Assembly: GCF_963921235.1 (NCBI RefSeq)
Contig: NC_086097.1
Location: forward strand, 173,850,001-173,914,000
Length of the DNA: 64,000 bases
Source of the DNA: Mobula hypostoma
Lineage: Eukaryota
Direction: 5' to 3'
Part shown: in pieces, positions 4,101 through 32,259 of the stretch
Numbering within the stretch: the first letter of the stretch is position 1
Layout of the letters: each line of letters starts with the position of its first letter
Program-made: the position numbers and the translations under genes
Notes under the pieces: model-generated
What the model was told of the DNA's origin: nothing
Seen by the model: the letters and a program-made list of their open reading frames with translations, nothing else
Database searches by the model: none

Positions 4101-4463
4101 TAGACAATAGACAACAGGTGCAGGAGTAGGCCATTCGGCCCTTTGAGCCAGCACTGCCACTCACTGTGATCATGGCTGATCATCCACAATCAGTACCCCG
4201 TTCCTGCCTTCTCCCCATATCCCTTGACTCCGCTATCATTAACAGCTCTATCTAACTCTTTCTTGAAAACATCCAGAGAATTGGCCACCACTGCCTTCTG
4301 AGGCAGAGCATTCCACGGATCCACAACTCTCTGGGTGAAAAAGATTTCCTCAATTCTGAGTGGCCTACCCCTTATTCTCAAACTGTGGTCTCTGGTTCTG
4401 GACTTCCCAAACATCGGAAACACGTTTCCTGCCTCCAGCATGTCCAATCCCTTAATAATCTTA

Positions 4464-4697
4464 AAAGTTGCTGGTGAACGCAGCAGGCCAGGCAGCATCT
4501 CTAGGAAGAGGTGCAGTCGACCTTTCAGGCCGAGACCCTTCGTCAGGACTCTTCCTTCAGTTAGTCCTGACGAAGGGTCTCGGCCTGAAACGTCGACTGC
4601 ACCTCTTCCTAGAGATGCTGCCTGGCCTGCTGCGTTCACCAGCAACTTTTATGTGTGTTGCTTGAATTTCCAGCATCTGCAGAATTCCTGTTGTTTG
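4464..4697 (+). mobile_element. Young palindromic Penelope-like insertion with 15-bp TSD
   Basis: The TSD CCCTTAATAATCTTA is at 4449-4463 and 4698-4712. There are 87-bp inverted arms (4464-4550 and 4563-4649). The sequence matches the 3' terminal repeat of the GIY-YIG-coding copy at 18719-19450. Confidence 0.9.
4563..4598 (+). ncRNA. Minimal type-I hammerhead ribozyme motif in the PLE terminal repeat
   Basis: The sequence is AGTC-CTGACGA-agggtctcggcct-GAAA-C-GTC-GACT. It has the CUGANGA and GAAA boxes, helix I AGUC/GACU, a helix II hairpin, a loop-less palindromic helix III (ACGU), and a GUC cleavage triplet ending at 4594. Confidence 0.75.
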
Positions 4698-6525
4698 CCC
4701 TTAATAATCTTATATGTTTCAATCAGATCCCCTCTCATCCTTCTAAAATCCAGTGTATACAAGCCCAGTCGCTCCAATCTTTCAACATATGACAGTCCCG
4801 TCATCCCAGGGATTAATCTCGTGAACCTACGCTGCACTCCCTCAATAGCAAGAATGTCCTTCCTCAAATTTGGAGACCAAAACTGCACACAATACTCCAG
4901 GTGTGGTCTCACCAGGGCCCTGTACAGCTGCAGAAGGACCTCTTTGCTCCTTTACTCAACTCCCCTTGTTATGAAGGTCAACATGCCATTAGCTTTCTTC
5001 ACTGCCTGCTGTACCTGCATGCTTACTTTCAGTGACTGATGAACAAGGCCATAGTTGTACTTCCCCTTTTCCTAACTTGACACCATTCAAATAGTAATCT
5101 GCCTTCCTGTTCTCGCCACCAAAGTGGATATCCTCACATTTATCCACATTAAACTACATCTGCCATGCATCTGCCCACTCACCCAACCTGTCCAAGTCAT
5201 CCTGCATTATCACAACATCCTCTGCACATTTCACACTGCCACCCAGCTTTGTGTCATCTGCAAATTTGCTAATGTTACTTTTAATCCCTTCATCTAAATC
5301 ATTAATATATATTGTAAATAGTTGCGATCCCAGCACAGAGCCTTGCGGTATCCCACCAGTCACCACCTGCCATTCTGAAAGGGACCCGTTAATCCCTACT
5401 CTTTGTTTCCTGTCTGCCAACCAATTTTGTATCCATGCCAGTACCCTACCCCCAATACCCTGTGCTCTAATTTTGCCCACTAATCCCCTGTGTGGGACCT
5501 TATCAAAGGCTTTCTGAAAGTCCAGGTACACTGGCTCTTCCTTGTCCATTTACATAGTTACATCCTCAAAAAATTCCAGAAGATTAGTCAAGCATGATTT
5601 CCCCTTTGTAAATCCATACGTTGAACTTTAATTATATCGCACACTTCTATTTGAAAGTTAACTACACTAGCTTGGTTAAATAAAATACATTGTAGATCTT
5701 CATTAAAGTAACATTGGTAGTAGCATAAAACTGTAAGATATTTTGCAAATGATGAAAGCTTTAAATCCACAAGACATGCATTCATTACAGTCTTCTGAAA
5801 TTTCTGTAATCCTACTAACCCCACTAGTATATTTTTCTGATAGACTCCTAATTCACTTGCATGGTTTCGCATAGCAGCAGCATGACAACAAACTGCACCT
5901 CTGGCTTTGAATGACGAATGCTACTCTGGCCAGCCAACACTAATGGCTTAGTTTGTTTTTGCAATTTCTGCAGATCTTACTTACTTCTGATCTTGCTTAT
6001 TCCCCTCAATAAATTACTTTGACTCTCTAAAAGTTGCAATTCAGCTCCACAATCAAAATGCACAGTAGATCAAGCGTGATCTAAAGAAAAAACAAAAATA
6101 AAATTCCCTAACATTTTATTAAAACTGGTACAACTTAGAATTCTCACGATCTTGAAGCAAATGTAGAGGTAGGAAAAGTAGTGATGGTGAGGAAATAACA
6201 AATGAGAATATTTGGGACATGGTGAATAGCAGAGGAACATATAGCAAAAAGAGATGATAAGAGATGAGTAACAAAAGAAAAAATGTATCTAGAATGGGTG
6301 TAAATGGAAACAGCTATTTTCTAAAACTGAATTCAATGCCACATCTGAAAGGCTTGTAATGTGGTCAATCAAAAGGGAGGATGGATGGCTCTGGGAGTAA
6401 GTTATATTTATCTTCATAGTACGTGGGAACATCTCCGACATAGTTGAATGGCTTGCCAAGTACCATGCCCCTTACCTTCTGACTGCAACTTCATGCTTTG
6501 AAAATGGCATTGCAGTTGGATAGGT

Positions 6526-6910
6526 AACCTACCAAATATTGAAAGACGATATGGAGTGAAAATGGGAAGGTTGTTTCCAATAGTGGGAGAGACCAGAACA
6601 AAAGGGCACAGCCTTTGATAAGGCACAGCAACAGAAAACATGCCTTTCGGAACAGAGATGAGGAGGAATTTATTTAACCTGAGTGTGGTGAACATGTGGA
6701 TTTCATTGTCACAGATGGCTATGGAGGCCAAGTCATTGATTATATTTAAAGTGGTGGTTGATAAGTTCTTCATTAGTTAGGGCACCAAAGGGTACAAGGA
6801 GAAAGGAGGAGTTTGGGACTGAAAGAAAATAAAATAACCATGATCGAATGGTGGAGCACACTCAATGGGCTGAATGCCATAATACTGCTTCCACATCTTA
6901 TGGTCTAATG
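6526..6910 (+). mobile_element. CR1 LINE 3' fragment
   Basis: It begins at TYQILK, has a TEMRRNLF..VVN.W remnant, and ends in the tail CTTATGGTCTAATGG. Confidence 0.8.
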
Positions 6911-29648: not shown

Positions 29649-30278
29649 TTTAGTTGGATTCAGTAGAAATGGATGAAGGGACAAGGAGTTAGAGAACTGA
29701 CACTGAGAGCTAAGGATGGGGGTAATATTGCTGAGGATTACAGAGAAAACAGAATGGGACAGGAAAAGAAAAGAGAGTATGGAAGGACACTGAAGACTGG
29801 TGGATGGCTTCAATAATCTATGAAGCTCAGAGGAAAAGGGGAGAGAAAATGTCGTACAGAGATGAAAAGGCTGGTTTTTTGTTTCTGTTTCAGTACATGA
29901 GCTGGGGAATGTTGTAAGACCATAAGACATAAGTGCAAAAATTAGGTCATTCAGCCCATCGAGTCCACTCCCCCATTCCATCATGGCTGATCCCAGATTC
30001 TATTCAACCCCATACACCTGCCTTCTCGCCATATCCTTTGATGCCCTGACCAATCAAAAACTATCAACTTCTGCCTTAAATATACCCACAGATTTGGCGT
30101 CCAGTATCTGTGGCAGAGTATCCACAGATTCACTGTACTCTGGCTAAAAAAAAATTCCTCCTTACCTCAATTCTCAAAGGTCTCCCCTCGAATCTGAGGC
30201 TGTGTTCTCTAGTTCAGGATACCCCCGCTATAGGAAATATCCACTGCACATCCACCTTATCTAGTCCTTTCAACATTC

Positions 30279-30492
30279 ATCGAAGTTGCTGGTGAACACA
30301 GCAGGCCAGGCAGCATCTGTAGGAAGAGGTGCAGTCGACGTTTCAGGCCGAGACCCTTCGTCAGGACTTGGGTCTCGGCCTGAAACGTCGACTGCACCTC
30401 TTCCTACAGATGCTGCCTGGCCTGCTGTGTTCACCAGCAACTTTGATGTGTGTTGCTTGAATTTCCAGCATCTGCAGAATTCCTGTTGTTTG
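30279..30492 (+). mobile_element. Young palindromic Penelope-like insertion with 13-bp TSD
   Basis: The TSD CCTTTCAACATTC is at 30266-30278 and 30493-30505. It consists of inverted arms of the PLE terminal repeat. Confidence 0.9.
30333..30368 (-). ncRNA. Intact hammerhead ribozyme motif (VPS13B sense strand)
   Basis: The reverse complement reads AGTC-CTGACGA-agggtctcggcct-GAAA-CGTC-GACT, identical to the 4563 copy. Confidence 0.72.
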
Positions 30493-32259
30493 CCTTTCAA
30501 CATTCGGTAGGTTTCAATGAAAATCTGCCCACGCCCCCAGCATTCTTCTAGATTCCAGTGAGTACCGGACCAAAGCTGCCAAACGCTCCTCATATGTTAA
30601 CCCCTTCATTCCCAGAATCATTCTTGTGAACCTCCTCTGGACTCTCTCCAATGACAACACATCCTTTCTGAGATATGGGCCCCAAAACTGTTGAAAATAC
30701 TCCAAGTGCGACCTGACTAGTGTCTTATAAAGCCTCAGCATTATCTCCTTGTTTTCATATTCTATTCCCCTTGAAATGAATGCCAACATTGCATTTGCCT
30801 TCTTTTCCACAGACTGAACCAGTAAATTAACCTTCTGCGAGTCTTGCATGAGGACTCCTAAAGTCTCTCTGCACCTCTGATGTTTGAATTTTTTGCCCAT
30901 TTAGATAATAGTCTGCACTATTATTCCTTTTACCAAAATGCATTATCATACGTTTCCCAGCACTGTATTCCATCTGCCACTTTTCTGCCCATTCTTCTAA
31001 TTTGTCTAAGTTCTGCTACAATCACATTGCTTCCTTAGCACTACCCACCACTCCACTTATCTTCATATCATCTTTGCTACAAAGCCATCAATTCCATTAT
31101 CTAAATCACTGACAATGTGAAAAGTAGTGGTCCCAATACTGACCCCTGAGGAACACCACTAGTCACTGGCAGCCAACCAGAAAAGGCATTCCGCGATCCA
31201 TGCCCATCTTTTCTGTAATGCCATGGGATTTTATCTTGTTATGCAGTCTCAAGTGTGGCACCTTATCAAATGCCTTCTGAAAATCCAAATAAATGCCATC
31301 CACTGCCTCTCCTTTGTCCCCCTACTTGTTACTTCCTTGAAGAACTCTGACAGATTTGTCAAGCAATATTTCCCTTTACAGAAGCCATGCTGACTTTAAG
31401 TTATTTTATCATTAGTCTCCAAGTAGCCCAAGACCTCATCCTTAATAAAAGACTCCAACACTTTCCCACTGAGGTTAAGCTAACTGACATATAATTCCCT
31501 TTCTTTTGCCTTCCTCCCTTCTTAAAGAGTGGAGTAACATTTGGAATCTTCCAGTCCTCCGGGACCATGCCAGAATCAAGTGATTCTTGAAAGATCATGA
31601 CCAATGCAACCATAACCTCTTCAGCAACCTCTCTCAAGACTCTGGGCTGTAGTCCATCTGGTCCAGGTAACATATCCTTTGTAATAGCAATGGTACTCAC
31701 TCCTGCTCCCTGACACTCACAGATGTCTGGCACACTGCTTGTGTCTTCCACAGTGAAGACTGTTGCAAAGTACTCATTAAGTTATCCACCATTTCTTTGT
31801 CTCCCATTACTACCTCACCAACATCATTGTCCAGTGGTCCAATATCAACTGTCCCCTCCCTTTTACTCTTTATATAACTGACAAAAAAAAGTTTAGGTGT
31901 CCTGCTTTATATCATTGACTAGTCTGCCCTCATATTTCATCTTTTCCCTTCTTAGAGCTTTTTTAAAATATAAAAAACTTAGAGAACTGCATTCAAATAA
32001 GCAGGGTGATTGCTGATCATAAGAGTAACTTTGAGATAGGTGGAGTGTTATGTGCATTTAGGTTTTCTAGAGATGTGGACATTGATTATCAAAACAATTG
32101 AGAGTTGGTTGTTTGACAAATGCTCCAGTTGCTTTAGCATTCTGAATAGCAGTGTTTTTTGAAATGGTTTCAAATGCTGAAGGGGAATCTGAGTGTGATG
32201 GGGCATTTACTACCTGCAGTTTCATTCTGTTCACAGCCAGTTCCATGGAGAAGCGACAT

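Follow-up and report, generated by a model that had tools for sequence, protein, structure and literature searches.

Insertions of a Neptune-like Penelope element at one CR1 ORF2 site point to a loose, mirror-symmetric target preference

The window, a 64,000-nucleotide stretch of Mobula hypostoma DNA (NC_086097.1, positions 173,850,001 to 173,914,000), holds three insertions of a Penelope-like element (PLE) at the K-G codons of CR1 ORF2, here called the KG site. The KG site is a sharp hotspot, one of several favoured sites, probably made by a loose mirror-symmetric preference of the endonuclease. In our preferred reading, to which we give a probability of about 0.78, the element inserts genome-wide with a degenerate mirrored preference, the E-T-Y codons of CR1 provide a half-site that makes the hotspot, and the three cases in the window are a chance cluster. 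The headline of one retrotransposon hunting another does not hold.

The three insertions, their target-site duplications (TSDs) and their hosts are as follows.

4122..5139, minus strand: host LINE of insertion 1, 3' part of ORF2
4449..4463, plus strand: 15-bp left TSD of insertion 1
4464..4697, plus strand: insertion 1, 3' end of the Penelope-like element plus inverted 5' arm, 234 bp
4698..4712, plus strand: right TSD of insertion 1
4711..4720, minus strand: strong half-site of host 1, the E-T-Y codons of CR1
18381..19895, minus strand: host CR1 of insertion 2, 3' part of ORF2
18711..18718, plus strand: 8-bp left TSD of insertion 2 (9 counting a shared G)
18719..19450, plus strand: insertion 2, truncated 5', GIY-YIG coding end (to 19105) then 3' repeat, 732 bp
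19451..19458, plus strand: right TSD of insertion 2
19464..19473, minus strand: strong half-site of host 2, GAAACCTATC, by motif score
29940..30951, minus strand: host CR1 of insertion 3, 3' part of ORF2
30266..30278, plus strand: 13-bp left TSD of insertion 3
30279..30492, plus strand: insertion 3, 3' end plus inverted 5' arm, 214 bp
30493..30505, plus strand: right TSD of insertion 3
30506..30515, minus strand: strong half-site of host 3, GAAACCTACC, by motif score (L035)

The earlier note had described three insertions at one homologous CR1 position, and its coordinates, insert lengths and TSDs all proved accurate, as did the minus-strand host readings IETYKIIKG, IETYRMVKG and IETYRMLKG. 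The hosts are diverged as it claimed (61–70% identity among the three over 300 nt) and the inserts differ in diagnostic bases, supporting independent events. We provisionally take the hosts to be CR1 from ORF2 motifs, host 1 included; the LINE-type reverse transcriptase (RT) domain RVT_1 was found by profile match; for host 1 this match lies at 5157–5549, further upstream of the listed ORF2 part. The half-site of host 2, GAAACCTATC, has the top score among the KG hosts listed, and the same word was scored in loci L039, L044 and L045. Contigs from four public runs over 17500–31500 contain the unique stretches in 4/4 runs, exactly in X1; among the pieces listed none bridges a junction, and the joints are swamped by paralogues.

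Other copies and an empty site lie nearby.

10208..10373, plus strand: copy of the element family at another target, in an RT-bearing LINE of non-CR1 type, with a 14-bp TSD (10194–10207 / 10374–10387)
26115..26262, minus strand: copy at the end of CR1 ORF2, in sense orientation, with a 12-bp TSD
26508..26533, minus strand: empty KG site that fits the strict pattern
61254..61912, minus strand: copy in CR1, its host flanks far apart within ORF2

A TSD was looked for at the 61254–61912 copy and none was found. These three copies bear out the statement that all six young PLEs of the window are inside LINEs, since they too lie in LINE-derived DNA, though off the KG site. Empty homologous sites are likewise present, the one at 26508 as a strict match and those at ~16480, 57661, 34600 and 6540 in diverged form.

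By its domain content, the element is most probably a high-copy Neptune-type Penelope-like retrotransposon with genome-wide insertion. A genomic copy contains a 594-aa open frame that joins an RT to a C-terminal GIY-YIG domain, with Pfam matches to RVT_1 (E 3.4e-6) and GIY-YIG (E 2e-4) that each fall slightly short of the Pfam cut-offs. Between the two domains the frame reads CKRNKCYTC, a CX2-5CxxC linker, which the available text of PMC8557442 gives as defining the Neptune clade and common also to Nematis. The copies also show further features of EN+ PLEs: a pseudo-LTR whose tail varies, inverted 5' arms and a short TSD. For the hammerhead motif of the pseudo-LTR, Rfam gave no match of any kind at gathering score in the window, where core-like words can be seen by eye.

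Genome-wide counting places the KG site in proportion. Among 42,858 counted element ends, exact KG junctions number 48 against 0.39 expected under uniform placement, an enrichment of ~120-fold, and include both main 3' variants of the element; with tail variants the number rises to ~138, extrapolated from 54/100 among the first 100 of 256 rows. The insertion position is sharp to 1–2 nt. Of 358 junctions of the element with GCCYTT, 48 (13%) are strict KG sites versus ~0.5% that a hand calculation gives for the base composition, so that the proposed peak beyond CCYTT frequency is real, and an endonuclease with sequence preference is supported. The site nevertheless takes 0.1–0.3% of counted ends, its occupancy is 0.08–0.2%, and 0/50 unselected insertions fall there (upper 95% bound 5.8%). 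CR1-anchored loci are hit by 18/50 unselected flanks, compared with 69/180 for sequence >1.1 kb away at the same loci. The 48 junctions split 34 to 14 by strand (p=0.006), which we treat as noise because the split is absent from the wider set (122 versus 134).

The favouring of the KG site is probably explained by a motif derived from insertions elsewhere. The preferred target is a loose word, approximately GAAACnnAnY, that ends where one strand is cut, with its mirror image 13–14 bp away on the other; genomic junctions show that the spacer becomes the TSD and that the element may land in either orientation. Derived from 31 non-KG insertions, the training sites lying almost all within the first 3 Mb of a single contig, the motif holds 1.73 bits versus a maximum of 0.81 in 2000 random draws, and training on one side predicts the other (AUC 0.79 and 0.82). 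Its informative positions fall outside the TSD on both sides. After a second training on 30 insertions, from which all KG and LEYC sites were left out, KG ranked 9th of 738 positions, and 1st by the far half-site alone; LEYC positions ranked 2nd, 4th and 16th. The rank of KG stems from the conserved E-T-Y codons rather than from K-G: they form a near-optimal half-site, which puts the far cut at the K-G codons, and CR1 offers >63,000 copies of the E-T-Y site, so that a hotspot becomes visible. KG was the hottest of six anchors tested, despite having just one good half-site. The LEYC anchor, chosen as a CR1 control, turned out to be a second hotspot (93 rows, control 2; ~85/93 at the hotspot), and an adjacent anchor predicted to be cold gave 4 rows (control 1). 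Outside the training region, TTTC stands 18–21 nt beyond the element end in 21/60 rows versus 10.9 expected (p=0.0015, hand tally).

The matrix is crude, and its top site (offset 184–185) holds ~1/93 rows. A shift-realigned matrix lowered KG to 18th and LEYC to 21st; its top sites (-143, -142) hold 0/37 rows and the site predicted at -129 ~9/37 (control count 35), and it was dropped as predicting worse than the fixed matrix. TRAATTCCA was also discarded as a cold control: its 65 matches (control 18) are mostly confounded by the element's own tail, 2/65 being clearly in the CR1 positions under test.

Orientation and junction structure bear on how the target is cut. A fixed orientation at KG, as in target-specific retrotransposons and as earlier supposed, is not the rule: opposite-orientation junctions make up ~29/70 rows, a mirror TSD of 13–14 bp is present in 3/6 of those fetched, and the bias is ~4–5 to 1. 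That the KG site is hit both ways with a mirrored duplication suggests a two-fold symmetric staggered cut. The TSD at KG ranges from 8 to 15, hence there is slack in the second cut or in how it is processed. Microhomology at 3' junctions averages 1.08 nt versus 0.33 (25/33 sites used), with 1–3 nt seen.

These data were weighed against several other readings. An element dedicated to CR1, with the KG/LD site as safe harbour, would account for the ~120-fold excess at a single base, for the top rank of KG among the anchors and for the three window cases, but the 0/50 unselected insertions, the share of ends, the low occupancy, flanks without CR1 excess and the second, about equally hot CR1 position at LEYC make it highly unlikely; taking all copies of the family together, CR1 targeting is refuted. 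Nor do most copies sit at one target, as in elements of Tx1/R1/R2 type (48 to ~138 of 42,858). That the RNA tail rather than the endonuclease chooses the site by annealing would fit the excess of junction microhomology and the match of the tail continuation CGTTTAAA to CCTTTCAA at 6/8 positions. This match is already broken at its second base, is missing from opposite-orientation and LEYC junctions, and leaves aside that the informative motif flanks the TSD on both sides; in addition, PAc primes at RNA sites non-homologous to the cut DNA, according to the accessible part of PMC11167929. The tail, proposed to continue as TTTGCCTT, continues as TTTGCGTTTAAATTC, so long annealing to the KG motif is out and 1–3 nt of microhomology is all that stands of that proposal; we consider site choice by the tail very improbable. 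Chimeras of CR1 and Penelope copied as units by retrotransposition, duplication or gene conversion explain L118–L120, 3/48 junctions that are 98.5–99.5% identical over 398 nt and represent one copied event. With this exception they were rejected for the window and most of the sample, and have next to no probability in general: a clear TSD is present in 25/30 fetched junctions, with all 25 insert lengths distinct, and the window hosts and inserts diverge as described above.

The motif model does not by itself account for three of 48 KG junctions lying within 26 kb (if placement were uniform, P would be about 1e-4, between 3e-6 and 4e-4). The motif model could be true and the trio still non-independent through a local cause, either open chromatin over well-matched hosts or repeated regional action. 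In the window, 4 element ends match the exact pattern, the genome mean being 0.8 per 64 kb. The three KG hosts all belong to favoured kinds, and occupancy differs strongly by host subfamily, one of which makes up 54/100 sites among the matches listed and 2/48 filled ones. On the other side, each of the four further tight groups of GCCYTT junctions that were fetched holds at most one KG site, the three inserts stem from different source variants, and the window was picked for oddness out of some 250,000; a local cause seems to us a minority option, if the strongest of these. A fuller version is improbable: site specificity would be emerging in the Neptune endonuclease, a dimer with a symmetric recognition word fitted to conserved codons of CR1 ORF2, the element would be on its way to targeting LINEs, and a homing-like process acting locally would place several copies at homologous CR1 sites of one region.

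Under the preferred reading of genome-wide insertion with a mirrored preference, the RT-endonuclease would act as a two-fold symmetric dimer that cuts both strands with a stagger. One of the 3' ends would prime reverse transcription within the RNA tail, with 1–3 nt of microhomology, and the other end would receive the 5'-truncated or inverted arm. The window's three cases would then be a chance cluster at the hottest tested site.

In vitro work on target choice and cutting by PLEs covers one full-length protein. A mirror-symmetric preference with a spacer, and a TSD common to both orientations, are evidence from the genome for a double-strand cut made with a stagger by a dimer, which would contrast with LINE-1 and R2, where the strands are nicked in sequence. 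For a direct assay, KG and LEYC offer defined substrates, and the genome holds tens of thousands of insertions from which the model could be refined. No earlier report of the mirrored motif or of a CR1 hotspot was found in searches of the main text of the openly readable literature.

Target-specific non-LTR elements such as Tx1 and R1 place most of their copies at the target, and Tx1L reportedly inserts in the Tx1D transposon, whereas the element here puts 0.1–0.3% at KG and has other hotspots. The P element enzyme is a dimeric or multimeric DDE transposase; the present system is a GIY-YIG retroelement with target priming. As far as the available text of each source goes, target-specific non-LTR elements of Tx1, R1 and early-branched clades likewise insert recurrently at one base of a multicopy sequence (PMC4640811), and the palindromic target-site model of DNA transposons such as the P element likewise has a degenerate symmetric preference beyond the TSD, either orientation and hotspots (PMC2577343). 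Neptune-clade PLEs, in the portion of PMC8557442 seen, share the order of RT and C-terminal GIY-YIG, the CX2-5CxxC linker, inverted 5' arms, short TSD and optional tail, but their reported bias is to microsatellites, in contrast to the degenerate mirrored word flanking a 13–14 bp TSD here. PAc, a purified Poseidon protein of Anolis, cuts and extends both strands, is a predicted dimer and initiates reverse transcription internally, giving variable tails, all of which resembles what is seen or proposed here; it differs in belonging to the Poseidon clade and preferring AT-rich DNA with an ATT word at the cut, and its description, in the accessible part, is without a spaced symmetric site or fixed stagger (PMC11167929).

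We searched the Mobula hypostoma genome (3.476 Gb) for exact ends of the Penelope-like element and for the strict KG site, that is, the K-G codons of the ORF2 motif IETY-x-x-x-KG in CR1 LINEs, and found 42,858 and 63,225, respectively. Exact element-KG junctions number 48, the window supplying three. With 0.39 junctions expected at each base offset if placement were uniform, the KG hotspot is real, with an enrichment of about 120-fold, and the 12 positions adjoining the junction hold few rows. GCCYTT follows 358 element ends, 48 of them at strict KG, against about 0.5% expected (hand arithmetic), which bears out the peak beyond CCYTT frequency that the earlier note's reading predicts; on the first contig, strict KG accounts for 6 of 27 such ends and diverged KG for 2–5 of the remaining 21. 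When tail variants are included, KG occurs in 54 of the 100 first-listed rows of 256 (hand tally; control count, 43), projecting to about 138 junctions in total. Among the 30 exact junctions fetched, 25 carry a clear TSD of 8–15 bp, and the insert lengths of these 25 are all different. Three further junctions, near-identical copies on small contigs (C156, C136; loci L118–L120), represent one KG insertion event copied, and probably sit inside a duplicated unit or array. Individual loci show further features: the target word is doubled in tandem in the left flank before one KG insert (L057); the element-KG junction recurs in tandem a few bases downstream at another (L134, contig C1, about 224,969,270), as if two priming attempts had occurred; and frames beside a third filled site (L152) resemble an LTR-retrotransposon remnant.

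The insertions at KG in the window, and other features there, are as follows.

4464–4697, insert in a minus-strand LINE
18719–19450, insert in a minus-strand LINE
30279–30492, insert in a minus-strand LINE
61254–61912, element copy that contains a 60-bp internal repeat and lacks a TSD
604–1494, minus strand, 296-aa frame, presumably a Tc1-like transposase by its motifs
49606–50259, minus strand, 217-aa frame, which appears similar to the C-terminal region of hAT-type transposases

All three inserts interrupt their hosts at the K-G codons, and their lengths and duplications agree with the earlier description. Their proposed independence also holds, because the hosts are 61–70% identical (300 nt compared) and the diagnostic bases differ among the inserts. 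We take the hosts to be CR1 from their motifs, the Pfam match being to RT only. The other three young copies in the window lie at positions unrelated to KG. At 61254–61912, the CR1 flanks derive from far-apart parts of ORF2, which suggests a deletion at insertion.

The proposal that the element targets CR1 does not survive the genome-wide counts. None of the first 50 element ends listed, taken regardless of flank, is a KG insertion (0/50). KG takes 0.1–0.3% of element ends and 0.08–0.2% of KG sites are filled, shares that count strict sites and that diverged sites would raise somewhat. The flanks of 18 of these 50 ends match CR1-anchored loci, compared with 69 of 180 control pieces taken at the distal ends of those same loci and 58 of 320 pieces from the window. 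On the 0/50 count and these flank matches, KG is not the target of the family and there is no clear CR1 excess; overall, this is a known kind of element and not a CR1-targeting retrotransposon. Nor is KG the sole hotspot, a second CR1 hotspot being the LEYC codons. This anchor, about 190 nt from KG and picked as a control before any model, gave 93 rows against a control of 2, about 85 sharing one position (hand tally), while the adjoining 17-nt stretch gave 4 against 1. TSDs of 9–13 bp were found in 4 of 6 fetched LEYC insertions (LEYC loci noted, L159–L164 and L091); L091 is an unselected insertion in the opposite orientation.

Of 56 ends examined, 33 have a TSD, 21 of these being 13–14 bp long. 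Taking out two window KG inserts left 31 insertions, in which the same loose word flanks both TSD ends, with preferred bases at positions −10 (G), −9 to −7 (A), −6 to −4 (C), −3 (A), and −1 (C or T). The word carries 1.73 bits of information, compared with 0.36 ± 0.09 in random sets, and on either side it predicts the other (AUC 0.79, 0.82). A matrix from 30 sites without KG or LEYC ranked KG 9th of 738 CR1 positions, and first when the far half-site alone (the E-T-Y codon run) was scored. As an independent check on ends beyond the training region, we looked for TTTC where the motif places it, and 21 of 60 rows had it against 10.9 expected (p = 0.0015); of the 100 rows listed, 28 had been set aside because they were unlikely to be element ends and 12 because they fell in the training region. 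The top site predicted by the matrix gave about 1 of 93 rows, the predicted warm region about 9 of 37 (control count, 35), and a realigned model performed worse than the original. The target motif is real and the matrix rough.

If placement were uniform, three KG insertions in a 26-kb span would have P = 3e-6 (n = 48) to 4e-4 (n = 250). The actual probability is higher because host and element density are uneven, and is raised further by strong subfamily bias, the other hotspots, and the choice of this window out of a very large scan. Of the 100 first-listed KG sites, 54 belong to one CR1 subfamily, which accounts for only 2 of the 48 filled sites; the subfamily may postdate most of the Penelope burst, or may be a less favorable target. 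A local cause could also have gathered the three insertions, but the four close groups fetched elsewhere hold at most one KG site each. We take chance as the likelier explanation, by about 4 to 1.

About 29 of 70 rows show the element sitting at KG in reverse orientation as well, and 3 of 6 such loci fetched carry a mirror-image TSD of 13–14 bp, the other three having no credible TSD within 300 nt. Microhomology with the tail at the 3' junctions averages 1.08 nt versus 0.33 (25 of 33 sites). The junctions establish a degenerate mirrored preference with 13–14 bp spacing, both orientations, and short microhomology. In the mechanism we propose, a dimer would cut both strands in a staggered manner; one cut end would prime inside the RNA tail, and the other would join the truncated or inverted arm. 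The orientation bias at KG, roughly 4–5 to 1, suggests that priming occurs preferentially at the cut distal to the strong half-site.

One long copy in the genome (L056 with L151) holds a 594-aa frame comprising RT, a CX4CxxC linker, and GIY-YIG. Such a linker marks Neptune and Nematis (PMC8557442), and by it the element is provisionally placed there. PMC3846280 already describes Penelope insertions into LINEs, as well as inverted arms and tails. The literature searched, with Repbase and supplements outside its scope, holds no report of a CR1 hotspot or mirrored motif, and passages of PMC8869645 and bioRxiv 10.64898/2026.07.22.740005 add nothing on target preference; the preference of this element is apparently new to the literature. 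Reported preferences are microsatellites for Neptune (PMC8557442) and AT-rich DNA for PAc, the Anolis Poseidon protein studied in vitro (PMC11167929). The 3' end here runs on as TTTGCGTTTAAATTC into the next unit, and copies stop at varied points within this tail, resembling what that paper describes for PAc. PAc, a predicted dimer, also cuts and extends both strands (PMC11167929), consistent with the mechanism proposed here.
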